Source of the DNA: Atractiella rhizophila
Taxonomy: Eukaryota
Direction of reading: 5' to 3'
DNA length: 36,887 nt
Assembly (NCBI GenBank): GCA_021432655.1
Contig: MU271325.1
Span: 1-36,887, forward strand
Shown here: piece after piece, positions 3,045 through 28,320 of the stretch
How positions within the stretch are numbered: the first letter of the stretch is position 1
How the letters are laid out: each line of letters opens with the position of its first letter
Translations under genes and position numbers: made by a program
Notes under the pieces: generated by a model
The model's input: only the letters and a program-made list of their open reading frames with translations
What the model was told of the DNA's origin: nothing
Database searches by the model: none

Positions 3045-4978
3045 ATGTTGGCGTTACTCTCCTTCCTTCTCCTCTTCCTCACTACCGCCCTCGCTCAGGA
3101 TGTATCAGAAGGTATTCTTCCACATTCTTTATTCTCGATGCCTCAGTAACTCATCAATGTCGCGACATAGAGAGCCCATACTGGCACGATGTTCGTCTCT
3201 TCTTCTTCTCTCCTCCTATTCAACAGCAACTAATTTGTGGACATGGAACAGAGATACCATGCATTCCTGAGCATGGCAGCCTACGACTACTCCTACCTCG
3301 AAACCTGTCCTCTCTTCTTCACCGGTTCGTCCTCCCCTCATCACCTCCATCCCTCCATCCTCCCAAAATCATTTCCATAACCCAACCCGAATCCACAATC
3401 ACATGCTAACATGATGTCACATACGACGGGTTGGGTTGGTATTATAGAGGAGGCGAAGCAGAAAAACTTCCCTGGAAACATCGAACCTCCGTTCACCGTC
3501 ATCATTCAGTTTGGACCGACTCTGAAGCAGGGAGTGAGCGGATATGCGGTCGTTGTCCCGTGAGTCTTCTCCTTTTTCTTCTTAGAGTTGGGTCGCCCGT
3601 TTGCTCTCTTTGTTTCTGGTGCGCGCTTCTTGGGTGGGAGGTGTGGACGCCTTCTTGTCAATGTGCCGGTAAAAAGTGAGAGAGCTGAGGGATGGAATCG
3701 GGTGCTTCCACACTCTCACGACAACTCAAACACCCCCTGTTCAAACTATAATAGTGAAGACTACACCATGTTACAACTAGCGATTGTGCAAGAGAGCTAC
3801 TAGTCCTTCCCACGAACCCATTACATTCAATCGCCGAAACTAAACTGACCATTCCTCGCGTTGCAACAGAGAAATGAACAAGACCGTCGTCGTCTTCTCC
3901 GGCGTCTACGGCTGGGAGAACTTCGACGCCAACCCCGCCTCCCTCGCACCTTTGAACGTGGACTGCGACGAGTGCACGGCCCATGCTGCCGCCCTCGAGG
4001 CTTGGTTGGAGATCAAAGAGCTCACGGCTGATATGGCTGCTGTTCAGACTGTCGAGAGCTATAATGGTCATATTTGGAGTTTGACTGGTCATGGGTTCGG
4101 TCAGTTCCTCCTTTGATCCTTCATGGAGGATTAACTGTGCTGATTCTTCTTTTCCTGTATTATAGGCGCAATGGTCGCTCAGGTCGCAGCTATCGATTTA
4201 GGGTACCGTAATCTCGCTCATGCCATTCACACCTTTGGCTCTCCAAGAGTTTTCAATCCTGCCGGAGCGGCCTTGTTCAACAAACTGTTCTCTGGGTGGG
4301 AATTTGCCTCTTTCCTGTTATTGAGCGAATGCAGGACTGAAAAATGGATAGGACTTCGAATACGAGGACAGTGGCTAACAACGATGCGATCCCTCAAGTC
4401 ATTCCTGAGAGCGAGGACTATGTGCACGTCCTTGGCGGATTCCATGTGTTTGGGAGTGGAAACGCCGTTCGTTTCTTTCATTCACTATCCTTTGGATATT
4501 GCTGATGGTTTTATTTCATCGCCAGACGTATGGACAAAACTACGAATATTGCTCGTATTCCGCCTCGGACCCTAACTGTCTAGGAGGCAATTCACGAGCA
4601 GATCACTGGTTCTACTGTTCGTCCCTCCCTCCTCCACTCCCTCCACTAGCTTTTGTCTTATGAATGGAAACAGACACGACGCCCGGGACATGTGGGAACC
4701 AATACAACGCTACGACCTACAACCCAGCATGGAACGAAGCGTACGAGCAAGCCCAAGCCGCGTCATACGCGACCGTATCCACTACGCCGATCAGCCTCAA
4801 CATGACTGCAACTCCTGGGCCGCTTCCCACCAGCACTGTGAGCGAGACTAACCCGACGGCTGCACCCGAGAAAGGAGGTGCAGGACAGGATAGCTCCGCT
4901 GGTACGTTGAAGGTTGAGGGTGTGATGAGGTGGGGTGGTTTGGCGGCGATGGGAGTGGTTGGACTTGCATTGCTTTAG
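3045..4978 (+). CDS. Secreted class-3 lipase-fold protein, paralogue of 966-2693, Ser-less, putative GPI-anchored
   Basis: Signal peptide MLALLSFLLLFLTTALA-QD, then SPYWHDRYHAFLSMAAY, MNKTVVVFSGVYGWENF, WSLTGHGFGAMVAQ, TFGSPRVFN, DYVHVLGG, DHWFY. Thr/Pro-rich tail and hydrophobic end GGLAAMGVVGLALL*. Intron positions match the paralogue. Confidence 0.85.
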
Positions 4979-5229
4979 GTTGAGAGTTCCGGAGAGAGGG
5001 GTTTGTTTTTCGAGTTCGTTCGTGGAGTATATATTCGGTTCAATACCCGCTGATTGCCTCTTTTACCGGGCATGTATGCGTTATTACCATGTCGTTATTC
5101 TCATAGCCTTCATCCGGCGTGTTGTCCTTGCGTGTGTATGCCAAGCTGATGAGTCAATCTCCTGAACACGTCGTTCTGTAACGTATCACTTCAGGATTCT
5201 CTCGATCAGCGTAATACCAAGGCTTCAGT

Positions 5230-7062
5230 ATGACTGATACTGGCAGGCTTCCCTTTCCCCCCGAAATCTGGCTGGAGATCTGCACCCACCTCCCCATCTC
5301 AGACATAGCGTTGCTCAACCAAACAAACAAGGCTTTGCGTGCTTTGTCTACCTCAGCCTTGTATCGAAAGATACCTGGCGACCTCGAAGTTGAAGCTTCG
5401 CGCCTCCTTTGTAGGACTCTGCTCGAGAATCCGGAATTGGTTCAACATGTTCGGCACCTCGCTTTACACGGTGCTCGATTGAGCGAAGACGAAAGCATAC
5501 ATGTTGATGCTGTCAAATTGCTCAGTTTATCGGTGCTTCAACAAAATCTCGAAACCTTTGAGTTTATTTACACTTCCGAGACGCACGGTGGTATGTTCGA
5601 CGTTCTGACCTCGCTGATTCAAGCTTACGGATTGACTGTGCATCAGGATGGTTTCAGTCCGAAGATGTTCTCAAAGACAACATAATATGGGAAACTCTGG
5701 AAAGAGGAACTTACCCTCGACTGGAAGCAGTTTGCGTTCGCGAGTTTCCTTATGGATCAACTGAAGACCAAAATTCGGTTCGTTTGAGCTCCTCTCCCGA
5801 GGTTGACATAAGCTCATGGACGTGAAGCTGTACAAACTCACTCACTGGAAACGCGTATCAGTAACCACCCAAGAGTTTCAACTGGAAGACGGTGAGCTCG
5901 CTCATGGACTGTCATCAAATGAGGGGAAGTAATATGGTCTTGCTGCAGCGGACGGTGAACCTGACAATGACCCTTACACAATTGGCTTGTTCTCTTGGTT
6001 GGCCGATAACCGCTCATTATGTTACCTCGATCTCGAGCTCAAGCTTGACGAAGGGCCCGCAACAGTCGACTCTTGTTCCGTTACTTCTCTCCTCAACAAA
6101 GCATATTGGCCAGACCTGGTGTCTCTCTCCATTTCTGGTGCAGAGTGTCACGACATGATGAACGGTGCAATTCCCGATTACGGCTCCTCTCCGTCAGTGC
6201 ACAAGTTTTTGCAGTCGCATCCTGGCATTCGAAATCTCAAAATTGGTATTTGCTCCGGAAATGATTTTCGAGGCTGTCAAACAATCCCGTTTGCTGCTTT
6301 GCCTCCTGGCGTTTTACCAAATCTGCAATATTTCACTGGTACGAGAAATCACGTCGAGGACCTCGCTCGGATGTATGGGAAGCACGATAAACTCAAACAT
6401 ATTCGCTTGCTTGGGGATTTTGTGGCCATGAGTTGGCCGGATGGATGCGATCCTCCGCAAGACACTTTCACGAAGGCGCTGGAAGCGTTTCCTAATCTTT
6501 TGTCGTTGGACCTGAACCTTGACTATCCAACCGGCCTGGATCCAGACTACCTCTTTTTTGAAACATTGATAGATCTTTGTCCACACTTAAGAACTCTTAT
6601 CTTACCAGACATTTACCACCAAGATCTCGCCAAGTTAAAACACATCAACAGGGTGGAAGGGATTGAAGAGTGCCAGGATGATTACCCCAAGTATTACTTC
6701 TTAGTATCTCTCAAAGTTACTACCTAGAATCAGGGATATGACATTTGACAGGTTCTTGGTCTTTTATGACTGCTCACAAGCCTCGACCTCGAGGAGGAGA
6801 GGCTCGGTACCGCTTCATCTCGAAGGAGAAGGTTGATCCACGTAGTGTTTCGATAATGGAAATGGGTGTGCTGCTCGCAGTCGTTTCTGATGGTACCTTG
6901 GACTACATTTACTATGACAGAAAGCCTTCGTGGTCTCGTTTAGACGAAGCAGAGTGCCTTCCTCTATTTGTGAAACCTTTGCAAGGTGGTACAAATGCCT
7001 TGCGAAATTTCTCGATCATCACTGAGCTTGCTTTACAACAGAATAAGTTTTCACGCAGGTGA
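5230..7062 (+). CDS. F-box protein with degenerate LRR-like repeats (multi-exon; 3' end uncertain)
   Basis: N-terminal LPFPPEIWLEICTHLPISDIALLNQTNKALRAL..LY is an F-box pattern. Later LPNLQYF, FPNLLSLDL and CPHLRTLIL are LRR-like. Introns at about 5591-5646, 5779-5827 and 5892-5948 join the frames cleanly. Confidence 0.8.
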
Positions 7063-7542
7063 AATTCCATGAGCCATCATACCTCAGAAATTCTGATAGG
7101 AGGCGAATAGAAAGCTTCTCGAGAAGGTAGGATTAATGCAAGAACAATTGAAGGTGCCTGATAAAGTCAAGGGGCACCATGAGATTCATGCAGAATGTGT
7201 TTCTTAGCCGCGTAACACTTCCACCGCTCACAAAATAGCTTTCTTAAGAGGGGAAGTTGTTCGTGAGGTGAAGCACAAGGACGTATGATGCGGATTGATG
7301 CCTAGTCTCGAACCAGACTTGCGCTTAGTGGAATCACGTGACCAATTATGTAATTATTGGCATCAATTCCACTCAGACCCACCACCCACCACCCATTTCC
7401 ACCTCACAAAGTCGGGCTCGAGACTAATTGATGCCGGCTAAAAGTCCAAGACGCGATTCTCTTCTCAACGATTGTGAAGCTGTTCCCGACAATGAGGATG
7501 CAGCCATTGGTAATTCGGTGGTTTATTCTGAAAGAGTGAGAC

Positions 7543-10501: not shown

Positions 10502-10987
10502 ATGTCCTCCACCAATACCACCGACGCTGATTCCCCTATTTCGTTTCCCATTTCGGATTGGGAGAGGATCAACTACTACCACGGTATCTCACCCGACCCT
10601 CCTGAACTTCTCTATCGCTCGGATCTGCAAACAAATCCATTCCCCATCCCTGAAAGTAGCTCCTCCTACATCCCCACCAAGACCGTCCACGGAGTTTTTG
10701 GCACGCCGCTCAAGGCTATTTGGGATGATGTCTGTTCTCACATCTTCGACCTCATAGAAGCTAGGGAAATTCGTTGCTCGGCAATCAAGACAGCACGGTT
10801 CTCTACCGACAACGAGGACGGGACGACGAGTCGTGGTCCTGTTGTTATTTGGATTGCGGTTTATCCCAATTCAACCACCGCTGCGATGGCACACGACGCT
10901 TCCCAAGCCATTCTCGCTCTTCTTCGGGATAAGGAAATTGAGGGAGTGGTGGTAGAGTGGTACGAGGGAGTTGTGCAGAGATTGTAG
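10502..10987 (+). CDS. Intron-free hypothetical protein, probably an N-terminal fragment of a multicopy basidiomycete family
   Basis: YYHGISPDPPELLYRSD...PTKTVHGVFGTPL..IW...GPVVIWIAVYP.ST...AHDAS..IL.LL...GVVVEWYEG.V.RL. I recall this pattern from Agaricomycete hypothetical proteins that are normally longer; not verified by search. Confidence 0.6.
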   Translation: MSSTNTTDADSPISFPISDWERINYYHGISPDPPELLYRSDLQTNPFPIPESSSSYIPTKTVHGVFGTPLKAIWDDVCSHIFDLIEAREIRCSAIKTARFSTDNEDGTTSRGPVVIWIAVYPNSTTAAMAHDASQAILALLRDKEIEGVVVEWYEGVVQRL

Positions 10988-11887
10988 GTCTCTCTCACGC
11001 TTGCACGGGTCTATTACTCTCTCGAACCCGTCGTGGCTCTCTATCATTATGTATCGTTTTGTTGTTGGATGATTGATTCTCGGCTGCGTTCCTGAATGTA
11101 TCCCAACCACGCTTTATCACTAAACAAATGACATGCTCAATAAATATTCTCCGTTGTAATACATCCTAGCCTCTTCAACTCATTAAAAACGAAGTCATGG
11201 AACAGACCTTCCGCATTGTAATATGCTTCACTCGTCACGTTAGTTGACTATCAGATCATCAGATTCCAAGGGGTGGATATTGCAGTGCTGTGGATTTCAA
11301 CTTTTTTCCACGGCGCCAGTAACGTCTTACTGGCAGCCACCATGGAAACGTGTCCTGTCATTACATTGCTCTATGTATTTAATCGTTGGTTTCTATGCAA
11401 ATTGGTTCAGCTACATCAGCGTAATGGTTCCTTTTACTTGACACAGACAGGCAAACAACAGCGCGTTCAATGCACGTGACTTCGATCACGACAAAAAGAC
11501 AAAAAGGCAAGGTATCCTTCTTATATCCTCTTGGTCCCTCCCACGCCTGCGGCTTTTGGCCACCAGCTCATTGTATCAAGGTAACTCAACAGGTCAGTTC
11601 GGCTTCACTCTCGACGGGCGAGAAAGCGGAGCGGGAGGGAGACTTCCTGTTCAGGATCGTTATCCCATCTGGTCCCGGACGTTGTGAGATTCCTTTAGGG
11701 CTGGCAGTTAAAAGTCACTCACTCTCGCCCTGTATCAGTACCACCCGCTCCGATTCGCTTCAGCCTTTGGTTATTCAAGACGGTTATTGACTATTGTATC
11801 GCTGTCTGGTTGGGTCTACAGGTACTTTTCATAGCACCCAAAGGTACGCTTTCTCGTAATTTGTATTGAGGGACAAGGGATAGACAA

Positions 11888-14800
11888 ATGTTTGGTTTTG
11901 TGGTGGTCATAGGAAGAAGAACAAACACGATGAAGATTTACTCACCTTCCAATACACGGACGAACGACCTTTTCCACCCGCACATCTCCTCTTCCGCGAC
12001 AACGTCACCCCTCGCTTTCAATGTTGGACTATCCACGCCCCTTCCGCCGAAGCCGTACCGAACTAGGATAAGGAAGCCTTCACAAACTCCTTCGCCACTG
12101 TCGGAGGATTCGGTTCCTGGTTTAGGAATGGCTGCCCAGACTCAAAGTGAGGAGGAGGTAGAGGATGTGTTTGGGAGCTCGCCCATTGGATCGCTAGGAA
12201 GCGGTGAAGAGAGGAATACATCCATCCAGTCCGAATCTGGCGTCGCAACTATTCCGTTCCAGGCTACACGTGCCAGGAATACATATATATCTGTCCAGGC
12301 ACCGACTGCACGCCTTGCTTCTGCGTTTACCTTCGGTTCTTCGCCCCCTACGAGATCGTCACAGGGACCTGCTGACAGATCTGAAGAGGACGCGCGAGCG
12401 GCGACATCTGGAGAAGAGATAGCGCAGGCGTCCGACTCTCGCTTTGGACTTCCCACTCCTCCCTCGAGCCCAGATTTGAAGGGAAGGAAATTGAGGCCGC
12501 TCCCTTCGAGATCTTCAAAGGCGGCACAGGCGCAAAAGACACCCAGCGGCAAGGATAAAGGCGGGAGTGGGAAGGGCACTGGTGAGAAGACTCCTGCATC
12601 CGCTTACGTTTCTGGGCTCCATACTCCTCCGTCCACCCCAACGAGGACGTCGAATCTCTCTTCTAGATCTGAGACGCCGGATAATGCTCAAAAGGTGCAC
12701 ACTGATGAGAAGGATGTGAGAAAGCCCGAGGAAAGGAGCCCCACTGGAGCGATCAACACTCCACCGTCCACTCATACTACGACGTCAAATCTCCCTTCAA
12801 GGCCCTCAAAGCAGCCCAACAGACAGGGTCCTGAATCTGCATCGACATCGGCTAGAGCAACGTTCACGAATGCTAACGAATTTGGATCCGCTTTACCTAT
12901 TCCTCCTCCAACGCGGACAAACGGTACAATTTCGAATGCTGATGGTAATACTTTCAAGTTCGTCTTCCCTACCAACCCCCTGCCCACAAAGCCCTCCAAG
13001 GCAGCTCCCGCAGACTCGAGCAGGAAGGAAAGTGAAAAGGTGGAAGCGAATGGGGGAGGTGGGAAAGGGAGACAGAGACCTTTCGACTTCACTACTGCAT
13101 CGAATGTGCCGACAACAACGAACACAAAGACGACGCCGTTGGGGAAGTATTCGTTCAACATTGGCTCTTCAACAGCCCCTCCTCGATCTTCGAATGGACC
13201 TGAAAAGCCCGCGCCGAAAGTTGATCTGAGGTCTACTTTCATGAATACTCCGCCCAACAACGGCGCAGAGAAGATCCCTGCCCCCGCCCCCGGTGTCAAA
13301 ACTACTTCACCTTATCCTCAAACGAATAACTCTCGGTTCACTTCGAACATCCCTTCCACTGGTGCTCCTCCTGCTGCCCAATCTTATCCCCAGACGAACA
13401 ACTCCCGTTTCACCTCCAATGTTCCTACGACTCCTCCTCCGGCCGCTCAGTATCCTCAGAACAACAACTCTCGCTTCACGTCCAACATTCCTGCCGGATC
13501 GTCGAAACCTCCGCCATCAGAGAGATGTAGACGGCCTCCTCCTCGAGCGAAGCCAAGCTATGTTAGTTCTTCGGATAATAGCTCATCAACGTCTTCGGAC
13601 TCAGACTCAGATAGCGAGGGTCCCACTTTCCGTGGCTGGCGTAAAGCATCGTCTAATAATACTCCGCCTCGTAACCCTTCCTCTTCCCGTCCCCCTCCTT
13701 ACAGTCCGCCTCCGTCATATTCCTCTGCGCGCCCCTCCGCCTCTGACAGAGCTTCTCCACCACGTAGCAAGCCGTCTAGGGATGTTTTCACGGATGAGCA
13801 ATTGATTGCACATGCTGAATCTGGTTATTGCGCAGGAGTTGGGACGTCCACGAATCGGATGTGCGGTAACCGTTCGACCACGAGGTATTGTTATCATCAT
13901 GGAGATCAAAGATACACGCCGCAGGGAGAGAGGTTACATGCTTATTTTCAACGTCAACGGAACTCTCAACCTGCCGATGTCTTCACGGACGAACAGTTGA
14001 TCGCACATGTTGCAGATGGCTTTTGTGCTGGAGTTGGGAGGACCACTAATCGCATGTGTCGTAACCGTCCGAGCGCCAGATATTGTTACCATCACAGAGA
14101 TCAAAGTCACACTCCGCAGGGAGAGAGGTTGAAGGCTTATTTTCAAAGTACCTCGTCGAACACGTCCAGAGGGCAGTTTCGCGCTCATTTCGAATCGCCA
14201 AAGTCGGGGAATGAAGAAGCGATTTCCCGCTCAGATAATGAAGCAATTGCCCATGCGGAGCTCGGATACTGTGCGGGAATGACGCTGAAGAACAATTTGT
14301 GCATGAAAACAGCGCAGGTGTGGAAAGGATCGAAGTATTGCCATCTTCATGGCGATCAAGCAAATAACTCACGGGGACGGAGACTTCGGAAGTATTGGGA
14401 CGAAAAGAAGAGGAAGAGTGAGGAGACGAAAGAGCGAGAGAGGAAGAGGAAAGAGGAAGATGTCCGCAAGAAACATGCAGAGGAGGAGGCGGAGTACGAG
14501 AGAAGAAGGAAAGAGAAGGAGGATTGGGCGAGGAAATGGGAGGAGGCTAGGAGGAAGGAGGAGGAACAGGAACGACGGGCTGAGCAAGAGAAGGAAAGGT
14601 TCTGGCAAAAGTTCGAGGAGGATCAACAGAGGGGTAAGAAAGAGCAAGGGCGGCAAAGGTACGCCATCCTTTTGGGCCAAACAAGGTTGCTCAAACCTAT
14701 TCACAGCTTCCGTTCCACAACCTCTGCGCCACGGGCTGCTTCCATGTCTAACTTCTCCATCAATCTGGTCGAATTCTACACCCAGTCCATCTCGGCACCT

Positions 14801-15127
14801 CTCAACGCTTCACGTCCTTTCTCGAAAGTGACGTGGCCAGCCTTGGATACCGGTCGCCCGATTGCCCCATCAGATATCACTGATGAAGCTGTGCGCGCCT
14901 TCTTTGAACGAGTCAAGAAGTGCATCCAGGACGAACAAGCGAAGACAAGAGATGCCACGAAGAAGGCAAAACTGGCGAAAATGGTCACTCAGCTTGCTAA
15001 AGAGACCATTAGGAAGTTCCATCAAGACCGTCTCGAATCTTTGGCAGCCAAAGTAGATGGGGTGGAGAAGGACGAGCTCAAGAGGGTGTTGATTGTCATT
15101 AGTCGGGTTAGCACGGAATTTAAGTGA
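11888..15127 (+). CDS. Intron-free ~1000-aa protein: disordered N-terminus, 3 C-C-C-H zinc-finger repeats, charged coiled coil, C-terminal NFKBIL1-like/J-like domain (HQD)
   Basis: Uninterrupted 3.2 kb ORF (alternative starts at 11930 or 12128). Three IAHxxxGxCAG..C..YCxxH repeats, an E/K/R-rich helix, and a C-terminal VTWP..DITDEAVRAFF..IRKFHQDR..EFK*. Confidence 0.85.
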   Translation: MFGFVVVIGRRTNTMKIYSPSNTRTNDLFHPHISSSATTSPLAFNVGLSTPLPPKPYRTRIRKPSQTPSPLSEDSVPGLGMAAQTQSEEEVEDVFGSSPIGSLGSGEERNTSIQSESGVATIPFQATRARNTYISVQAPTARLASAFTFGSSPPTRSSQGPADRSEEDARAATSGEEIAQASDSRFGLPTPPSSPDLKGRKLRPLPSRSSKAAQAQKTPSGKDKGGSGKGTGEKTPASAYVSGLHTPPSTPTRTSNLSSRSETPDNAQKVHTDEKDVRKPEERSPTGAINTPPSTHTTTSNLPSRPSKQPNRQGPESASTSARATFTNANEFGSALPIPPPTRTNGTISNADGNTFKFVFPTNPLPTKPSKAAPADSSRKESEKVEANGGGGKGRQRPFDFTTASNVPTTTNTKTTPLGKYSFNIGSSTAPPRSSNGPEKPAPKVDLRSTFMNTPPNNGAEKIPAPAPGVKTTSPYPQTNNSRFTSNIPSTGAPPAAQSYPQTNNSRFTSNVPTTPPPAAQYPQNNNSRFTSNIPAGSSKPPPSERCRRPPPRAKPSYVSSSDNSSSTSSDSDSDSEGPTFRGWRKASSNNTPPRNPSSSRPPPYSPPPSYSSARPSASDRASPPRSKPSRDVFTDEQLIAHAESGYCAGVGTSTNRMCGNRSTTRYCYHHGDQRYTPQGERLHAYFQRQRNSQPADVFTDEQLIAHVADGFCAGVGRTTNRMCRNRPSARYCYHHRDQSHTPQGERLKAYFQSTSSNTSRGQFRAHFESPKSGNEEAISRSDNEAIAHAELGYCAGMTLKNNLCMKTAQVWKGSKYCHLHGDQANNSRGRRLRKYWDEKKRKSEETKERERKRKEEDVRKKHAEEEAEYERRRKEKEDWARKWEEARRKEEEQERRAEQEKERFWQKFEEDQQRGKKEQGRQRYAILLGQTRLLKPIHSFRSTTSAPRAASMSNFSINLVEFYTQSISAPLNASRPFSKVTWPALDTGRPIAPSDITDEAVRAFFERVKKCIQDEQAKTRDATKKAKLAKMVTQLAKETIRKFHQDRLESLAAKVDGVEKDELKRVLIVISRVSTEFK
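13313..13492 (+). repeat. Three in-frame copies of YPQ[T/N]NNSRFTSN[I/V]P
   Basis: Copies start near 13313, 13385 and 13451. The peptide is near-identical while third codon positions differ. Confidence 0.9.
13781..14400 (+). repeat. Three ~55-aa Cys/His domain repeats
   Basis: DVFTDEQLIAH...TPQGERL occurs twice (from 13781 and ~13976), with a more diverged third copy from ~14234. Confidence 0.9.
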
Positions 15128-15529
15128 TGATTAATTGGTCGATTGGTCGATTGTATTTGTGTACGACATATCCCTCGCTAATGTATGTCCACCTAAGAAT
15201 GAAATGTCTATGCAACGTGGTCTTCCACGCACCCGCACTACTTCGTTCGACCTGAACGTCGCATTCATACTTGTGACAACGAATCTGAATTTGGTTATTT
15301 GCACATGTTGTCCAGGAAGAAGGTTACGTTGCGCGCCTTGCCACAACGAAACCCAAGGTCCTGTTCAACCAACTCTTTGCGCCGATGTGGTGCGTATTCG
15401 CCTGACATTCTACCCTGACCGCTGACAAGCAGGAGAATAGGCATTATAGACGGAGAGTCCTTTAGTTCATGCAATGAGAGCTCCATTTTGCCCGTAAACT
15501 ACTCTCTAGTATCACTTGGCCGAAGGGAG

Positions 15530-17146
15530 ATGCAAAGTCATCAATTTGGATCAACATCAGCCTATGGCACACCTTCTGCAACACCCTCTGCCCCTACTCC
15601 TTCTCCGCCAGCTTCTAGAGCGTCCACTACGCGCATTCCAGACTTCAGGAGTTTTATCTTCCTCGATGCTACCATCATCGCACACGCTGAAAAGGGAAGA
15701 TGTAGTGGCATTCTTGGACCCGGTCAACTTTGTCGTGCAATAGCAGCAGCCGGTGATTATTGCCCTTTGCATGGATCGGAAGGAGAGACCACACAAGGGG
15801 AAAGGTTGAAGGATTATTGGGCTGCAAGACGAAAACGAGAAGAAGCTGTTCGGAAAGCTCAAGAAACGAACCTTGCGGAGCAGGAGCAGGCGCGCGTTCG
15901 AGGAGAAAAAGTGGCTGAAGCGCGAGAGAAACTGCAGAAGCAGAGAATAATAGAACGTCGCGCCTGGATAGAAAATGATAGGATCCTGAGGGAGAGGGTC
16001 CTGGTCGACAGGATACAAAAGATACAGGCTGAGAAGGAGAGAGCGAGGAGGACGAGAGAGCCGAACCCAAACGGGGAGCCAGATAATGTCATGGATGATT
16101 GCCCATCTGCTCCGCATTGCAGCCCACCGCCACCTTCGAAACCTCGCTCCTCGAGCACTGTCCCGAACTTTGACCCTCCTCTGTTTAAAACTCGAGAGTT
16201 TGAAGCTCCACCACCGTACGAAGGGAATACACATAGCTCATCCAAGCTAAACTCCGACGAAATGTTACAACTAATGGAGGAAGCGATGCAACAACTGCGA
16301 CGCGATTTTGCCTCGTTCCGCGAAGCCAACACAAGGAAAAGAGAAGACTCTAGCGCCTACGACCCCTGTTCCGACAGGGGGATGAGGACAGAACCCACAC
16401 AAGGCGGGGGAAAATCAAGCCCCAACAGCCAAGGGCGACAGCCAGGAATGAAATGTAACCCAGATCCAACAGAGGAGGAATCAACATCCCATCCAACAGC
16501 AGAACCATCAAAGCCACCAGCCTTTTCAACGCAACCTAAAACGCAGCCTTCTTCATTTCCACATGTCCCTTCGCCACCACCACCACACCCTTCCACGACC
16601 CAACCACCGTCATCCCCAACCGGGCAACCCAAACCACCACCCAAGCCTTCCTATTCTGAAGCAGCTGCAATGGCTCGGACAACACCAGAAGAGCCACCGA
16701 GACCAGCACCAGCACCTCTGCGCAAGCCGCCGCGTCCATCACTTGCGCTTCAAAAAGAGGAGACTTTCCGCAGTTGGCTAGCCCGTTATACCCTGGTTTT
16801 ACGAGAACCTCTCGTTCGGGAAGGAGAGACGACACTTCGAGTGCAGAACGTTCCATGGCCTATCAAAAAAGTTTACAAGAGCCAAAAGAATGTGTCTCTT
16901 AAAGACATAACAGTTGACTCCGTAACCGAGTTCCTTCAAAAGGTCAAGAGAAGTATGAAAGAGGAGGAGTTCAAGCAGTTCCTCAAGAAACTGCTACTGT
17001 CTTTCCATGAGGATAAGACAAAGATCCTCATGGACACTGTTAGTGATGCTCCCCTGAAGGATATGAAGGAGGCTCTAGGAATTGTTACGAGAGTCACGAT
17101 TGATTTCAAGAGTGAAGGACCAAAACCCCCAACGTTATGGTTCTAG
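15530..17146 (+). CDS. Intron-free paralogue: single C-C-C-H zinc finger, coiled coil, Pro-rich linker, C-terminal NFKBIL1-like/J-like domain (HED)
   Basis: First ATG at 15530. DATIIAHAEKGRCSGILGPGQLCRAIAAAGDYCPLH..TTQGERLKDYW, and a C-terminal VPWP..DITVDSVTEFL..LLLSFHEDK..IDFK. Confidence 0.85.
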   Translation: MQSHQFGSTSAYGTPSATPSAPTPSPPASRASTTRIPDFRSFIFLDATIIAHAEKGRCSGILGPGQLCRAIAAAGDYCPLHGSEGETTQGERLKDYWAARRKREEAVRKAQETNLAEQEQARVRGEKVAEAREKLQKQRIIERRAWIENDRILRERVLVDRIQKIQAEKERARRTREPNPNGEPDNVMDDCPSAPHCSPPPPSKPRSSSTVPNFDPPLFKTREFEAPPPYEGNTHSSSKLNSDEMLQLMEEAMQQLRRDFASFREANTRKREDSSAYDPCSDRGMRTEPTQGGGKSSPNSQGRQPGMKCNPDPTEEESTSHPTAEPSKPPAFSTQPKTQPSSFPHVPSPPPPHPSTTQPPSSPTGQPKPPPKPSYSEAAAMARTTPEEPPRPAPAPLRKPPRPSLALQKEETFRSWLARYTLVLREPLVREGETTLRVQNVPWPIKKVYKSQKNVSLKDITVDSVTEFLQKVKRSMKEEEFKQFLKKLLLSFHEDKTKILMDTVSDAPLKDMKEALGIVTRVTIDFKSEGPKPPTLWF

Positions 17147-17299
17147 AATATACTCCCTACATTTTGTACGTTACGAGCTACTAATGTTCTGTTGTATTTA
17201 AGGCCAGGCAAACACGATAAGGACGATAAAGATATTTCATTCGAGCTCAGCTCTAGTTCAAGCTGGTGAAAGTGGATTCTCTGCATCCTACACTGACAT

Positions 17300-19010
17300 T
17301 CACTAAGCTAACACGGAAGGCATTTTCATTCAAAAGCTTGTCTTCATCATTTGAGGACGATCATGTGCCTCGCCGATCTGCTGTGACCGTTCTTCTACAG
17401 GAATTACTAGTACTCGCAAATTCAAGTCGCAAGAAGTGCCTACCCCTGCCCCTGAACGCTCTTATAAGCACGCTACGAAGTTTCCTACATTTGTTCCCTT
17501 GAGTCTGTGGCTGCTCGCTGAGGTCCCTTTCGCAGGGTAGAGTTCAAAGTCATGGACAGGTAAGTCACTAAAACATGGCTGGTAGTAACCGGAGCCAGCT
17601 CCAGCTCACGAAGTGGAAAGATTCCCTTCATTGCTATTGGCATGTCGACAATGGATAAGACATCTAATTTCCAAGCGATAATGCGGATAAAGTTATTGCC
17701 CATCAAGGGAACCTGGACGCAACACAGAGTAGGTACAACAAGCACTTCTGACCAGATCCCAGAATCATTCCATGTATTCACCCACCTTTCCTCCCGGTTT
17801 CGAGATATCACTCGCAACACTTTGTGACAATACGACGGTAGTCGCAGTGAGCTCAAAGCCAGCAGGAATACTGGACACCGAATTCGACTGTACATGAAGG
17901 ATGAGATATTGGAACAAGGAACTTGGACAGTAGGAAATTGCGTACGTTGTAGTTCGTAGACGGGGGATATGCAATCGTCCCTTGATATGTCCCTTGCCCA
18001 TGTCGATTGGAAGTCCCACTGGTATGGCCAACAGACCCACTTGACCCCTTTTTCTGGAACGCAGGATCTGAGAGAACAGCTTCGTAAAGGGTCAGGACGG
18101 CAATCACGTAGACTTTCTGTATTCATCCATATCCAGATCTAAGTACCTGCTAAAAGGCGACAGGAGCGGAATTCCTACCGGTGTCCAGAAAGAGACGGCA
18201 TAATGATAGCCCAGCTCTTCTTGTGCATAGAACCACACAAGATGCAAGAGATTCAGTACTGCTGGCGCCAACCCTGTTTGCAGTGAGAGCGTCATCCACT
18301 ATGAGGTGTAAGCTGTAATCAACTCCAAGCCCGAGAAGCATACCTTGTCGACCAAATCGACCGTTTGATGAGATGAAGCGGCCTTCCGTTGGTAGGCGAG
18401 GTGGAAAGAAAACACACTGCCAGACCAACTAGTTAGTTTGCGCCAGGATGCTCTGAATTATACGTACGCAGAAAGCAGAATGCTAAGTCGTAGTGAGCAA
18501 GGTGTGAAAAGCCCTTTTGGAAAACGCAAGGGACTCACTCTGCTGCTGTGGAACCTCCGAGCCATAAAGCCAGTGTAATACTAAGCGCTCCATCAGGTTG
18601 ACACATCAGACAGAAATCAAAGCTCACTCAATCTTCTCCAATTCAGGAAACTTGATATTGATGATGATGAATGATTCGACGATCGAAGCCGCCAACTACC
18701 TCAACTTTGAGCCATGAGGTCGTCAGGTTAACGAACATCCTCTTACACTAGTCAACGACAAGGCGGCTATGAGAATGAGGAGCCTGTCTGATTGTTCAGT
18801 TGTACACAACAAAGGGGCAAGAGGTGAACGAACCCATAAGTGACAACCATGATTGCTCGTGCCTTGTCGCGAAAGTAGTCCCTGGCGTTTCCAACCAGTT
18901 TCAGTGTTCTAGGCATCGTTATTAGTTGATGGTTCAGTTCCCAAAATGGATCGCTAGCATACCGACGAATGAACGCGATATGAGTTAGGGAAGCTATTGT
19001 GGCATCCACA
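17300..19010 (-). pseudogene. Possible decayed LRR/F-box-like gene
   Basis: Scattered LRR-like peptides in different minus frames (FPELEKI, YLDLDM, LDVLSI, LRELEL, CRKLRSVLI) with no continuous model. Confidence 0.25.
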
Positions 19011-21639
19011 GAAGCATAAAAGAATGCGGATTTGGGGTATTTGCCGCTCAGGTAGGCAACCTATTGGGTGGTGAGGCTCAGTACCGCCAGCCATATCAGT
19101 GGTTAGAAGGAAGGCATACCCCATTGACAGCGCAACCCTGGATCAATGTACTGAGATAATGACTTTTTGCGACGCTGTTGCGAAGGTTTCATTGGTGCAA
19201 AATGTTGTAAAGAGGAAACGTACGTATCCGTAATATTTGCAAGGAAGAGAAGAACCAAGAGTGTCCATGTCAATTTGCTCGTCCTCGAAACCTCTGTCTG
19301 ATTTCCCCGAGACAGCAAACGAAAGACGCGCTTACTACTCCATAGCCTCAGTTTCGGTAACGCGTGTCGAGCGATGGACTCACAACTGGACAAGAGAGAC
19401 GCCCAAAAGCAAGAAGGCTATCAGTCCGCCGATAAAACTCGGTCGAATCTGTTCCACCCATAACTTGTCGGTGAAAGGCACAAACTCAGGTGAGGCTGGC
19501 GAAGCCATCTCAGCTGAGAGTTCGACCTTTCTAGAAGGCTACTCAAAGTTGTTGTGGCACGACTGGAATGGTTGGTGGGAGCGAAACTGGCTGGACTCTC
19601 TTGCGGTGCGCTTTTTCAACGAGACGATTGTCCCACACTGGTTCGTGTTTTCGTGTTGGTCGAGTCCTTATCAACTGCGATCATGACCCTATGGATCTCC
19701 CAGAGCCACTCAGTTTGGATCATCCTTAGGCAGAGCCTAACATCATCTCGCGAAGGAGCTCGGATCAGCCGAAGGGAACCCTGACATGTTGAAATCGAAA
19801 TCGGAATCTCAACTCCGCGTGGGCGTACAGACAGCAAGCCACGCCTAAACTCAATATATTTTTGTGTCCTGATACATTCAGAGTCACATTCACGATAGAG
19901 ACTTCAGCTTCTGAAAGTCCTCCTTGGTCCGACGACGCTGTGAAGATGATTGAGAACGTTTCCGCTTCGCTTTGCACCAGGTTCGGCGAATACTCTGTTC
20001 ACATGGATCAAGGTGATAAGTCGGACGAGACCCCGCAGTCATTTGGCCTCCATCTCATTCAAGATGAATCAGAGTAACCCAAAAGATGAACTGGATATGT
20101 ATTGTCCCTCGAAACACCTTGGGAATAACATTGAATAGCGGCTGCCAACACCAGTTGGTATTGAATGGATTGAACTGAAATAAGAGTGGGAGCAAGGAAG
20201 GGATGATCAACATTAAGAGAGACGAACAACATTGGATCAACCAATCGGTTGAGTAATTAGACTAGGCCAGTTCGTGGATGCCGTAAGAATGAACGGTCTC
20301 CAAGCCTGGAAAGAACGCTTGACGGTTGAAGTCGGCTCGGGAACGGGACGATTGAAGTGGAAAGGTCGAACGCACTTCCAGTCGCCTTGCACAAGACAGC
20401 ACTACTCTAAGAATTGGGGAAATTGCAAAGAAATTGCTCCATGGAGGCGCTGGGGAGTGCTCGGAGCTGAGTTGCGAAGAATGAGACTTCCACATTCCAG
20501 CTGCAACTGAGAAGATGATCATGGAGCTGCTGATAGGATGGAAACAGTCGGAAACAAGAGGAACAAACAAACGTCGGGTGGAAGACTCAGTTGAAGCAGC
20601 CCCCGCACTCTTTGCTGGGAACTCAGAACGAAAAAAGGAGCCCCAGAACGCAGCGGTACGAACCGGATGGTCTGAATGAACGCTTTCACCAGAACCACCC
20701 AACTCAAAATCCTCTTCAAAGAGCTACAGATGACAAATGGATAGCTACCTATTTAATGCAAAGCACATCTAGCTCACTGCGTTCCCAGTCATCAACGTCT
20801 CGTGAGACCCAACCGTGTAACCGTGGGAAGTGCAGAGCATTCTGATGGTGAGGAAGGGGGCTGCTCTACGAGGTTGGAGTCAGTAAAATGTATTTGTACA
20901 ACACAAGAAGCTGGTTCGCGTTGGTGGCGGATGTTGGATCTTGTAAGGCCTGTGTCACTATCCGGTTTAGTTTGAAACTACGAGACAACAGTGGAAGAGG
21001 GTGACATTGTGAGGAAATCGATAGATACTATAAGCTAAGCAACGTAATAAGCTAAGTTGTTCTGTGTCGAATCCTGAGGAGGAGGAGGGAGAGCGTCCAC
21101 AGTGGTTTTATGTCACTGTGATGTGGTTCAAAGGTCTGTTGCCCCCTTTTAGTAATAGCTTTGGCGATTGGACGGCGAATCTTGAATCGGAATACACTGT
21201 TGCTAAGCAAGCACCTCTGTTTTGTGCCAACTCGAATTCCTATGAAGGCATTGGTCTGATACGTACAGGCAATTGTCTGGCGATTATTCTCTCCTCCTTC
21301 TAGTCCTTCTCCGCTTCCTTTTGAGGATCTTGACAAAGTCCTCTCCAAAATATTACGAATTAGAGTATTGTTTAGCTTCAATGCACTACGTAACAGTCAA
21401 TTCCTTGACAGTCTTCTTGAAAGCTTTGACTTGATGGGCAGTTGGTGTCAATAACCAAAGAACCACCCTATTTGTGATCCATTGCGGAGTACGAAATCAC
21501 ATTGAGGCATGTTGTCGGTTCAGAGGAGTTTCAACAAAAGCATTAATCGCAGTTGTTTGGGGACCCGTTATTACAGCTGCTCCAAGCACAAAAAATCAAG
21601 GTGTGTCAAATGACTTTCTAAGTATTGCTAAGCAAGTAG

Positions 21640-21955
21640 CCCTCTGTGGCGCCGTGCTCTTCCTTTCAACAGAAGAAGAGCCGCCAGTTCTAAGCCATTA
21701 TTCTATTCTCACTGCGACCTTAATCCTACCAATATCCTCGTACAAAATGGCAATATAACTGGATAAGTCTCTATTACGTTCCAAGTTATTCGCCGGTAGG
21801 GATCACATCCCATAGAATAATTGATTGGAAGTGGAGCGGTTACTATCCGGAATAGGTGCAATATGCCAGCATTCGTAATTGGGGTGTAACGCACCTAAGT
21901 AGGCAGTGCGAGACTTATCTGCTAGATGCCCTAGCTCCATACCCAGAGATGTGAA
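21640..21955 (+). pseudogene. APH/choline-kinase-like phosphotransferase pseudogene (catalytic core; full extent upstream unclear)
   Basis: PLFYSHCDLNPTNILVQNGNITG-[53-nt intron 21763-21815]-IIDWKWSGYYPE*VQYA ... YLLDALAPYPE. This matches the fungal APH 'H.DL...NILV..G.ITGIIDWE..GYYP.W' pattern. In-frame TAG at 21853-21855; the donor reads ATAAGT. Confidence 0.8.
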
Positions 21956-22276
21956 CCTACATTTATGGATTTGGGAACTACCAGGGTTTGGAAGTTGTTT
22001 CCTTTTTAACATCCAAATCTTTTGCCTGTCCTTCGTAATGATTACCTCACTCAATCAGCGAAATGCTCAGATTAAAGGATGGGAGGCCCAAAGGAGGCCT
22101 GAGACTTTCAAAAAAATTTTGGAACATGCCGATGATGTAAAGCTTCTCGCTTTCAACAGTTTCACGCTTTGCAGTTTGAATATATTTGTCTCTTTGGGAT
22201 CGAATTTGTCCCGTACACTTTCTAGCCTGGTTGAAGATCATTCAGATTTCAAAATTCAGACTATCGACACTTTGTT

Positions 22277-23269
22277 CTACCCATGTCGCTCTTTGAATTC
22301 CAAGACCCCTTGCAAGACAATCTTGCTTGCTCTTTGCACCTGCTCCGTCTCATCTGGCGTCACGCTACCGATCAACAAACGAGACTTATCCGTATGAAAA
22401 CGGAGCAGGAGAACCTTGATCAACTTCTGAACTATCCCATCTTCGGCGTGACGTTGCGCTTCAAGCAAGAAGCGCGAGACAGCTAGAGGAGTGATATCTC
22501 GCTCTGCTAAGGTAACAGGAGATGTAAATGTTTTGAAGATCGGCCATGGGATGTCGGCAAAACGAAAGTCTCGTTTGTTCCTTGCTGGCTGTAAGATTGG
22601 CTGTTCGAGCCGCATCAAAAGAAGTTTGGGCCAATTATGGAACTCATGTATGGGGGGTGGAGGTGATGGTGATGGTGAAGGTGTGCTCCTAAACTTTCTC
22701 AGCTCCTCTTCCGAACGTGTACGTCGTAGAGTTTCCGCCCTTGCTTTCGAAGCTTGCGTCTGTCGAAATTGTGTCTCGGAAAGCCGAGCTTCTGCTTCTC
22801 GCTGGGCGTATCGCAGTCGTTCAAGTTTCTCTTCTCCCATCCGTCTTGTTGCCGAGCGCGTTACTTCTTCTTGAAGCGCTCTTTCGTACATTCGCCTTCG
22901 GTGATAGCATTCCCTTTCCAATCGAAGCGGGTCTGTTATCGGCGTGGTGATACCGGAAGATTGCGAAGGAAGGTATGATGGCTGTGCCTGTGCGTAATCA
23001 TAAAGAGGCTGTGAAGGAGTGTTTGGGTGAGAAAAGAAGGGATAAGGAGGGGCATGCTGTGTCTGTGGGAAGTTATATTCTCTCTCTCTGGATGGGAAGG
23101 GACGAAAAGTGTGATTGCGGTAAGCTGGTCTGGGATACGATGTTTTCGAAGAGGGAAAGCATTGGGAAATTGGACGACAGTGATTCTGTTGGTAACAGGT
23201 TGAACGAGAACACCGTTCCAGCGGTGTTGCTGCTCGTGCTTTCTCTACTAACGGAAAGTTGAACTCCAT
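22277..23269 (-). CDS. Intron-free third paralogue: coiled coil plus C-terminal NFKBIL1-like/J-like domain (HTD)
   Basis: ATG at 23269. FRFADIPWP..RDITPLAVSRFL..KVLLLRFHTDKS..VLEFK. The C-C-C-H repeat is absent, but there is an N-terminal CSRSTC..HC..C cluster. Confidence 0.8.
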   Translation of the reverse strand: MEFNFPLVEKARAATPLERCSRSTCYQQNHCRPISQCFPSSKTSYPRPAYRNHTFRPFPSREREYNFPQTQHAPPYPFFSHPNTPSQPLYDYAQAQPSYLPSQSSGITTPITDPLRLERECYHRRRMYERALQEEVTRSATRRMGEEKLERLRYAQREAEARLSETQFRQTQASKARAETLRRTRSEEELRKFRSTPSPSPSPPPPIHEFHNWPKLLLMRLEQPILQPARNKRDFRFADIPWPIFKTFTSPVTLAERDITPLAVSRFLLEAQRHAEDGIVQKLIKVLLLRFHTDKSRLLIGSVTPDETEQVQRASKIVLQGVLEFKERHG

Positions 23270-26346: not shown

Positions 26347-28320
26347 CTATGAAAAATGTTGAGGACAAAACTGGGCGACTGCGAACTTCCCACTCCTCCT
26401 CCAATCTGAGGCCTTGTTTTCCAACTCCTCCTCCTTTCCTTCTTTCAATCCCACACAAACATCTGCCTTGCACGTCCTCAGCGCCAAAATGGGAAACTTT
26501 CCAGCAAGCTCTCCTAGAAACGGTGATGGAGATCAGCAAAGGGAAACGGCGATTCAGGACAAGAAAACGAACCCAGAGCTTCTGGAAACGGGGTCGTAGT
26601 TGGCCACCAGGCGTCTCCTGTAAGCTTCCGATAATTCAAATCTCCTTTGAAAACGACGAGATCTGCCTCTTGTAACCGTTTAAGGAGGACCGGGGCTTGA
26701 GTTGGCAGGTCAGAATACGGTAGTGGCCCACTCCAAACTGTGTCAACACGCCGCCAATTAGAAATGTAAGAAGGATGGAATATCAAGACGAACACTCTTC
26801 TTCCCCAGTCACTTGACCGCCTAACGTTGTATCCAATGGTACTGAAAGGTTCCATCTTCCATCTTTCACATAAACTTCCCAACGTCGTCGCATGCTTTCT
26901 AGCGCGTCTTTTTGTTCGGAGGAGGGCTTAAATGAATCGGTGACAAAAAAATCGGGATCTTTGAGAACTTCGAAGGTGAAGACAAAGTCAGAAGGTGTGA
27001 CGTCGGAGACGAAGTATGGGATCAATTTGGGGCTATCGTTTCAGCGCATCAGAGCTAGCCAAGGGAGAGAGGGATGACCATTACTGGAAGACTATTTTCG
27101 AAGTCAAGGATGAAGAGAGAAGGAAATCGGCAAAAATGAGGTCCTGTCATTTTATTCAAGATCTGTCTTTGGAGCATGTAAGTAAAAAACGGACAGTGTA
27201 AAGCTCGAATCCAGCTATTAATTGATAAGTGGTTTAAATGAACGAAGGAGGGACACACTCACAATTATCTAATACAATATCTACCCTGCGCTTCTTGTCC
27301 TTCAGGTCGGAGAGATAAGCCCAAGCGTCCTGTAGATCGTTCGCCAATATTTCCCTTCCTTCCTCCCCTCCAGAAGATGTATCGCTCTGCTGCAACCTTC
27401 GTATGTCTTCCGCGGTCATATTCGTCAAGAGACTTAGATCCTGGATCCCAACAAAATCACCAGCATCGGTCAGACAGATTTGGAGCAAAAAGTATGATAG
27501 GACGATTTGGAACGAAAGGCTTACAGTGGCGTTCCCCCACAGACTCATGAGCGCGATCTCCAGAAATGCAGTTTTCTTCTTCGCTCCATCCTCATCTAAT
27601 CCAACCCGCAGCTTTTCAAACGAGATTGCAGTCGAATAGACCCCTTCGCCAGAGGAGCGGAAGGCTTGCACCTTTTGGTTGAAGAAGGGATCGTACGTTT
27701 TGAAATGCTCAGAAAGGGAGAAGAGGGCTTAGATGCCTCCTTAGAACGACTTAGAACTGGAACAGGTAAACTTACAGCGCAGACGGCGATATCTTTCTTA
27801 GATCAGGTTATGAGGGGAGAAGGAAGAGAATGGAGGAAGGGACGAACAGATAGCATTCGTTGTATAGCCAGTCTCCAGTGAACCATGTACCTTTCCCTTT
27901 CTCTTTATTCACTCTTAAGAGATCATTATAGGTTGCCAAAGTAGGTTCGCCATCGTCCTCGATCTCACTGTGCCATCAATTCAGCTTCACTGAACAAGAA
28001 GACATCAGTGAACGTACCTGAGCTCTCTATCGCGACTGATTTCATGCTTCAACCTCGCGATTTCAGAGATGAGGAACTTCCCCTCCTCTCGCTTCAAGCT
28101 TTCATCCTCCAAAGTGAAGTTCAGTTTATTGAGACCGTCGATGGCAGAAGTAAGAATTTGTGGCCATCGACGCACAGTCCTGTTCAGTAAATACACATCA
28201 CTCCGTCTGGTGATTATCGTAGAAGACGGGGACGGCGCACGATTCGTAGGCGAAAGAAGTTTGCGGCCCAGACCTCTGGGATGCAGATGCGACGGGATAT
28301 GGGGGTATGTAATAAACCAT
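26347..28320 (-). CDS. DUF89/ARMT1-like damage-control phosphatase (YMR027W-like), multi-exon
   Basis: SFAYES-TVRRWPQIL, LWGNAT-DLSLL, RVDIVLDN-SGFELYT-DLIFAD, IPYFVSDVT..DF, LVVFKGDLNYRKL, LRTCKADVCVGL, GKFAVAQF. These are the hallmark DUF89 motifs in the expected order. Confidence 0.92.

Follow-up and report, generated by a model that had tools for sequence, protein, structure and literature searches.

Excerpts of published work on J-domains report that changes to their His-Pro-Asp (HPD) tripeptide always abolish function (PMC1906734), that the Asp has the key role while the roles of His and Pro are left open (PMC7289447), that in simulations His and Asp contact Hsp70 and Pro orients them (PMC13012618), and that in some systems even replacement of HPD by AAA leaves activation (PMC13012618). 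The same excerpts name DnaJ residues 25, 26, 33, 35 and 36 as functional or contacting (PMC1906734 and PMC13012618), residue 26 being needed for function (PMC1906734), and an excerpt of a fourth paper describes Pam16/Tim16 as a J-like adaptor with a corrupted HPD (PMC10939069). A PWP...HPD pattern also occurs in the C-terminal domain of NFKBIL1-like proteins and of a fungal family with the Pfam entry PF30945. Here we analyse three paralogous genes (ORF1, ORF2 and ORF3) in a stretch of 36,887 nucleotides from the fungus Atractiella rhizophila (contig MU271325.1 of assembly GCA_021432655.1, our contig C146; henceforth referred to as the window), which end in such a domain and have HQD, HED and HTD, respectively, at the place of HPD (collectively HxD). 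A sequence-only reading had taken them for three intron-free paralogues with a systematically altered HPD, forming a subfamily that might represent an undescribed modular sensor/adaptor system. The results below show that the domain, by structure match, has a Pfam family already, in which HPD is the norm, HxD is a one-in-eight variant and loss of Pro has been repeated and independent, and the window copies look like diverged members of this family rather than a new system.

The C-terminal 115-130 residues of the three proteins are homologous. The domain occupies positions 14783-15124 in ORF1 (forward strand; HQD at 15020-15028), 16763-17122 in ORF2 (forward strand; HED at 17006-17014) and 22280-22642 in ORF3 (reverse strand; HTD at 22396-22388), and all three tripeptides are thus as first noted. 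Fifteen columns of the three-way alignment are invariant, including W-P, D-I-T, a V, an F, F-H-x-D and F-K. BLASTP paired ORF2 with ORF3 (E 5e-18) and ORF1 with ORF2 (E 1e-9), and the three pairwise local scores (100, 71 and 155) lay above the shuffle maxima (55, 51 and 51), with none of 1000 shuffles as high in any pair. The shared [IV][PT]WP..DIT..F-H-x-D C-terminus is therefore borne out, and the three C-termini, whose failure to align had been named in advance as a weak point, align significantly.

The models of the domain were used for structural comparison. The ORF2 domain model (pLDDT 83.9) has helices at residues 2-14, 51-64, 67-80, 83-92 and 98-117, and the ORF3 core model (pLDDT 90.4) has four helices. 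In the predicted core, four helices pack into a compact bundle, and an additional helix directly follows HxD. In both models the variable residue x opens the helix that follows His (helix 83-92 in ORF2). Gln, Glu and Thr, like Pro and Asp, are structurally suited to the first position of a helix. The top structure match of the ORF2 domain was to a cluster from Basidiomycota, aligned over the part assigned to PF30945 (Pfam 38.1; TM-score 0.73, score 459, above the bar for naming), and a weaker match to a molluscan cluster of 'NF-kappa-B inhibitor-like protein 1' (TM-score 0.57 over 111 residues, score 133) fell under that bar. On these models the domain is predicted to be of the PF30945/NFKBIL1 C-terminal type, as the earlier comparison with the PWP...HPD proteins had proposed, and the pattern PWP...[FW]-H-x-D-[KR] is common to the window domains and the fungal family. 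As in PF30945 and NFKBIL1 proteins, the domain is C-terminal and stands behind a charged helix. The window proteins differ from NFKBIL1, here represented by the molluscan cluster, in that HxD replaces HPD and in that ORF1 and ORF2 carry Cys-Cys-Cys-His (CCCH) zinc fingers. Ankyrin repeats (Ank), present in 22-30% of the members of the molluscan cluster, were not found by a Pfam scan of the three window proteins (P0001-P0003) at E<=1.

To place the three copies in their family we searched 1.84 billion representative proteins with a profile of the three domains, which returned 238 proteins at E<=0.001. Family rows were drawn from the best 150 of these 238 matches; of 156 proteins collected, six of this genome and two cluster duplicates were removed, leaving 148, 147 of which contain the motif. 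Pro is retained in 129 of these 147 foreign rows, across very distant proteins (128 HPD and one HPN), and is replaced in 18, or about one in eight, by T, L, Q, D, E, N, S or V. Since the profile query was made of HxD sequences throughout, any bias favours non-HPD matches. The pattern used for the count required His, so the alignment columns provide an independent measure of its conservation: H stands at 100%, P at 81-85% and D at 98-99% (in sets of 62 and 91 foreign rows, selected largely for short length). The most conserved element of the domain is F-x2-[IV]-P-W-P. Members with names are hypothetical proteins of Mycena, Schizophyllum, Dendrothele, Ganoderma, Auricularia and Cryptococcus, and an Atlas feature search placed Basidiomycota clusters at 0.90-0.93. 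Word-index protein searches were insensitive (2, 3 and 2 matches), and a metagenome scan gave three loci that on reading proved to be unrelated proteins and were discarded. Among the foreign members, P0153 and P0137 combine the domain with a C-terminal RING finger and P0006 combines RRMs with two copies of the domain; in each a fusion of gene models is possible.

A quick tree (149 rows, 120 columns; five rows without a pattern match, including P0025, were dropped) requires 15 changes to account for 21 non-HPD rows, and well-supported branches force at least four of these changes. The non-HPD rows are somewhat clustered (15 changes compared to a shuffle mean of 19.9, with 1 of 500 shuffles as low). 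ORF2 groups with a further copy of this genome, on contig C1470, at a support of 83, and these two with ORF3 and one HPD row at 80. ORF1, whose branch is long, joins three Mycena rows at 87, and a copy on contig C98 falls within a clade whose 43 rows all have HPD. The four HxD copies of the genome do not form one supported clade. Because of the 15 changes and the forced ones among them, Pro loss is recurrent and not the mark of a single subfamily. The proposal that His and Asp are kept and Pro is free consequently stands for the alignment columns and falls for a discrete HxD subfamily, and the fact that about one relative in eight has also replaced Pro is the reason for regarding the window genes as diverged members. 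HxD variation is thus normal in the family as far as the data go; a published description of it was not found.

The A. rhizophila assembly (51 Mb) contains many genes twice, as in a two-haplotype assembly. Contig C743 carries the alleles of ORF1 and ORF2, with HQD and HED retained and long, intact frames, and its ORF1 allele has one 65-codon finger repeat fewer; the ORF3 allele is absent from it because its place falls in an assembly gap. A fourth paralogue on C92/C1470 has a CCCH finger of wider spacing, a coiled coil and HED. This paralogue lies at 4879-7121 of locus L022 (C92) and in locus L021 (C1470), loose ends in RNA run X16 match it, and its C92 copy differs from that on C1470 by a one-base deletion that cuts off the HED half and is either a null allele or an assembly error. 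A fifth locus, on C98/C759, is a coiled-coil gene with an intact HPD. Four of the five loci found are therefore HxD and one is HPD; these counts are lower bounds, because the genome was searched exon by exon with six single-sequence domain queries. The systematic alteration of HPD that had been proposed thus holds for the three window genes but neither for all copies of the genome nor for the family. A W-H-P-D-K pattern sought in the DNA of the genome gave one site, equal to the control and without family context.

All three genes are expressed, as RNA contigs show, and the frames first noted are confirmed (1079, 538 and 330 amino acids). However, ORF1 is not intron-free. RNA contigs of public runs define a spliced gene at 11470-15127 (forward strand) with three GT..AG introns: intron 1 (11684-11738, 55 nt; joint in RNA runs X16 and X2), intron 2 (11844-11912, 69 nt; joints in the same two runs) and intron 3 (14659-14706, 48 nt, in frame and without a stop; joint in X1, X2 and X3). 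The ATG at 11888, from which the plain frame of 1079 residues is read, is not usable as a start because it lies inside spliced intron 2, and the candidates are ATG 11470 (1161 residues after three introns) and ATG 11930 (1049 residues). Intron 3 is spliced in three of the four RNA runs, the X16 contig ending loosely at this point with upstream exon sequence, and the NCBI model P0005 (1177 residues), which begins at 11470, retains it judging by length. For ORF2 (15530-17146, forward strand) and ORF3 (22277-23269, reverse strand), X16 contigs span 15904-16949 and 22305-23166, respectively, without an intron among the stretches listed and, for ORF3, without a gap; X16 contigs are spliced at other places. 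The NCBI model P0004 of ORF3 (311 residues) attaches a different N-terminus via an intron, and since the X16 contig is unspliced through 22305-23166 the plain frame is favoured. The NCBI models that match the window genes are annotated as hypothetical proteins. X16 depth varies greatly among the three genes and was left unused, since contig depth cannot rank genes.

In front of the domain, ORF1 consists of a long Ser/Pro/Thr-rich region, three CCCH fingers and a charged helix (14408-14658, forward strand; E/K/R-rich), ORF2 of one finger, a charged helix and a Pro-rich region, and ORF3 of a Pro/Gln/Tyr-rich N-terminus and a charged helix (about 22694-22924). The charged and Pro-rich stretches are visible in the translations, as described earlier; the coiled coil remains putative, being suggested by composition. 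The fingers follow the pattern C-x9/10-C-x8/12-C-x2-H. Fingers 1 and 2 of ORF1 (13829-13900 and 14024-14095, Cys to His) are contained in a tandem repeat with a 195-nt unit (13781-14146), finger 3 (14270-14350) reads C-x9-C-x12-C-x2-H, and the finger of ORF2 (15701-15772; C-x9-C-x9-C-x2-H), on the same forward strand, is homologous to those of ORF1. A scan of the ORF3 protein for the finger pattern found none, and the variable zinc-finger N-termini claimed for the cluster are thus real in ORF1 and ORF2 only. Finger number is polymorphic between haplotypes (three in C146, two in C743), and the shorter, C743-type form is seen in RNA as a 195-nt skip in run X16. At position 13950 the divergence between the alleles jumps, from about 2% on the left side to about 8% on the right.

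When 153 proteins were searched with a profile built from the window's four fingers, just two matched, each a family member from Mycena (E 3.5e-7 and 5.6e-6); the profile missed the finger of the paralogue on C92, whose spacing is wider. The finger region gave no result in an Atlas search and one row, at E 0.052, in a PDB search; the window finger motifs were absent from 32 other loci of the genome (30 with DnaJ and 2 with DUF5763 matches, with flanks of about 1.5 kb). The only recurring finger family was DUF5763 (PF19067; cut-off 26.3 bits), with its best score of 21.1 bits in the Mycena protein P0032 (E 2e-4) and further hits in P0044 (E 0.044), P0123 (E 0.063) and finger 2 of ORF1 (E 2.9); the window fingers scored 7.9 bits or nothing, and the DUF5763 matches of the genome include none in the window. 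DUF5763, WRC and zf-C3Hc3H fingers have in common with the window fingers a spacing like C-x9-C-x10-C-x2-H, and the window fingers, which we take to resemble the WRC/zf-C3Hc3H type, are distinguished by flanking helices (AHAE..., GERL..Y[FW]). Neither WRC nor zf-C3Hc3H came up among the finger families listed by the Pfam scan.

The two Mycena proteins, KAF8206946.1 (P0032, HED) and KAJ6578172.1 (P0044, HPD), have the same order of finger, coiled coil and domain, and ORF1 aligns with the Mycena finger proteins from finger 3 to its end (E 1e-13). They are hypothetical proteins that differ from the window genes in that their two fingers are not of the same type and a long disordered N-terminus is missing. 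Mycena presumably belongs to the Agaricomycotina and A. rhizophila to the Pucciniomycotina. Since one Mycena protein has HED and the other HPD, finger and HxD are uncoupled; together with the HPD member kept by the genome, this does away with a discrete HxD subfamily combined with fingers. Of the proposed undescribed modular sensor/adaptor, the modular layout survives, recurring in Mycena, and nothing that we tested supports a sensor. In a search of the open literature, outside which most subscription papers lie, we came across no account of the fungal family, of its fingers, of the layout common to Mycena and the window, or of a link between NFKBIL1 and the J-domain; the only match for IPR038753, PF30945 or PTHR15263 was an Aplysia immunome paper, and NFKBIL1, DnaJ and Hsp70 together brought up only unrelated papers.

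We next considered whether the domain is J-like, as the sequence-only reading had held for part of it. In the 128 HPD rows, K or R stands at -11 (87%), -7 (57%), -2 (89%) and +3 (99%) relative to His, with L, V or I at -8. This pattern is in register with that of helix II of class C J-proteins (PF00226), K-x2-hydrophobic-[RK]-x3-L-R-[FW]-H-P-D-[KR], as seen in the printed PDB profile alignments with DNAJB8 (2DMX) and sacsin (1IUR), and the DnaJ residues listed at the outset (25, 26, 33, 35 and 36) have their equivalents in it, residue 26 corresponding to position -7. All four HxD copies of the genome have Lys at -7; the window copies have K, Q or T at -11 and S, R or K at -2. In two PDB profile searches (177,635 sequences) the rows for the domain region were J-domain proteins, with J-domains ranked first, the best match being sacsin (E 0.047 and 0.044). 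The long helix that follows the motif in the models also takes the position of helix III of J-proteins, from which the domain differs in the extra helix after the motif and in the lack of Pro in the window copies.

Several results weigh against this likeness. The J-domain sequence matches are non-significant and mostly span about 25 residues, the longest (Sec63) reaching about 57. In a Pfam scan of 66 aligned members DnaJ did not appear among the 25 of 34 families listed, nor did it match the three window proteins or their domains; the 59 DnaJ matches in the genome exclude the window. Structurally, Foldseek returned no match at E<=0.001 for the full domain and, for the predicted core, the sacsin J-domain at E 5.9 and TM-score 0.43, while a wide search (best Z 7.1) had no J-domain fold in 50 rows. 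With the core alone (best Z 7.8) generic bundles lead, and rows for HscB/Jac1 were rejected, as they aligned to residues 87-166 and 96-172, which we take to be C-terminal domains and not the J-domain. Glu, unfavourable for a J-domain, stands at -7 in 29% of the HPD rows, often in the HPDR-W clade; F-x2-[IV]-P-W-P upstream has no J-domain counterpart; and a cluster with 13% DnaJ reached only 0.76 in the Atlas feature search. The lack of a fold match does not exclude a J fold. Overall, by sequence the J-likeness does not go beyond helix II and HPD[KR], and the window proteins, which have neither HPD nor a match to Pfam DnaJ, are not J-family members by these defining features. As a control, the J-domains of the genome gave HPD at 22 of 30 loci, six loci without the motif and two HRD that look off-frame; alleles were counted twice in this control and it was not used.

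The ORF1 alleles differ in the domain at 4 of 275 nonsynonymous and 11 of 82 synonymous sites by a crude count (pN 0.015 and pS 0.135, pN/pS about 0.11), and the HQD domain of ORF1 is under purifying selection. A Logan protein (P0025, a single sequence) that is 39% identical to ORF1 keeps FHQDRLESLA, and C1470 retains HED.

The interpretation that we prefer, tentatively and at slightly less than even confidence, is that those family members which have HPD serve as atypical recruiters of Hsp70 and that the window copies are diverged J-like adaptors, weak at stimulating Hsp70, targeted by their fingers and spaced by their charged helix. The three genes would be fast-diverged paralogues within a widespread basidiomycete family. 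The results above show that they belong to this family and are expressed, how often each motif occurs and that ORF1 is constrained; the steps that involve Hsp70 or nucleic acid we infer as follows. HPD members would act as atypical class-C-like co-chaperones whose basic helix, together with His and Asp, docks Hsp70. With Gln, Glu or Thr instead of Pro as the residue that begins the following helix, the fold and the His/Asp pair would stay in place, and loss of the orienting constraint would make Hsp70 binding weak or unproductive. The window copies might then serve as adaptors or scaffolds in the manner of Pam16 and not as ATPase stimulators, with the fingers of ORF1 and ORF2 tethering them to nucleic acid or a partner, the charged helix acting as a spacer or dimeriser and the HPD copy on C98/C759 retaining the ancestral job. 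Pam16/Tim16 differs in that it is a protein of true J fold whose J partner is known, whereas a J fold and a partner would be putative for the window proteins, in which His and Asp are kept. What the excerpted account of Pam16 has in common with A. rhizophila is an altered-triad paralogue with an adaptor role beside an intact relative in one organism. Against our preferred interpretation also stand the fingers, which lie below every Pfam cut-off, so that nucleic-acid binding is suggested by analogy, and the ORF2 domain alleles, whose five nonsynonymous and three synonymous differences are too few to show constraint.

A possible, if doubtful, alternative is that the domain is a helical module independent of Hsp70, in which H-x-D-[KR] caps a helix and Pro is merely the preferred first residue. 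Having Q, E, T or D there would then do no harm, and the three genes would be normal, fully functional products of an expansion specific to the lineage. The missing J fold match, the PWP element, the many losses of Pro while H and D stayed, and the opening of a helix by x in both models all agree with it. It leaves unexplained the basic and hydrophobic pattern from -11 to +3 in the helix II register, the first rank of J-domains in both PDB profile searches and the retention of Pro in 129 of 147 rows.

A bolder proposal, which we regard as rather unlikely, is that the PF30945/NFKBIL1 type is an unrecognised, rebuilt J-domain, that of animal NFKBIL1 included, and that the HxD copies of this genome are natural variants without Pro which still engage Hsp70, either as stimulators that the extra helix braces or as finger-targeted competitors. 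Lower still is the probability that the window proteins are active or retuned Hsp70 regulators, in which the extra helix would fix His and Asp without Pro and which, targeted by their fingers, would stimulate Hsp70, serve an atypical Hsp70 of this genome or act as inhibitors that compete with true J-proteins. The retention of HQD and RLESLA at 39% identity, the constraint between alleles, the share of HxD loci, the 38 exon-level Hsp70 matches of the genome and the residual activation by HPD/AAA (in the excerpt of PMC13012618) are in its favour. However, x is not constant, being Q, E, T and E in the four copies and varying in foreign rows as well, which fits a relaxed choice better than tuning; the four HxD copies lack one supported clade, no Hsp70 gene was identified in the partly scanned window ORFs, and HPD changes abolish function according to the excerpt of PMC1906734. 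That the genes are decaying duplicates, with Pro loss a sign of decay, is highly improbable: the long branches (ORF1 1.71, ORF3 1.24) and the deletion in C92 point that way, but intact frames in both haplotypes (ORF1 and ORF2), RNA in four runs for ORF1, RNA-type contigs over ORF2 and ORF3 and the low pN/pS of the ORF1 domain speak against it, and for ORF1 decay is largely refuted.

Other genes of the window were noted in passing. Between ORF2 and ORF3 lies a gene at 17884-19700 (reverse strand) with at least 10 spliced introns and a 15-nt microexon between 18416 and 18539; it is covered in all four RNA runs, and its spliced 5' part is hydrophobic, so that it is probably a multi-pass membrane protein. 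Further away are an F-box-like gene (5230-6727, forward strand; PF12937, E 6e-5) whose next exon looks leucine-rich-repeat-like by eye, exons of an ARMT1-like damage-control phosphatase (26514-27548, reverse strand) and exons of a Glu/Gln-tRNA synthetase (31232-31972, reverse strand). An ORF of 161 amino acids at 10502-10987 (forward strand) has no Pfam match and is covered by an X16 contig, which skips 88 bases upstream without GT..AG ends.

Taken by itself, the cluster amounts to a modest expansion within one lineage, and its loss of Pro recurs in a minority of the family. Should the PWP..HPD domain engage Hsp70, the network of J-proteins would gain a large fungal family and perhaps also animal NFKBIL1, and the HPD, HQD, HED and HTD copies of this genome, on one scaffold, would constitute a test series for the role of Pro, which the work cited above addresses by simulation. 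If the domain is indeed a rebuilt J-domain, hundreds of basidiomycete proteins would have been missed by censuses made with DnaJ profiles.

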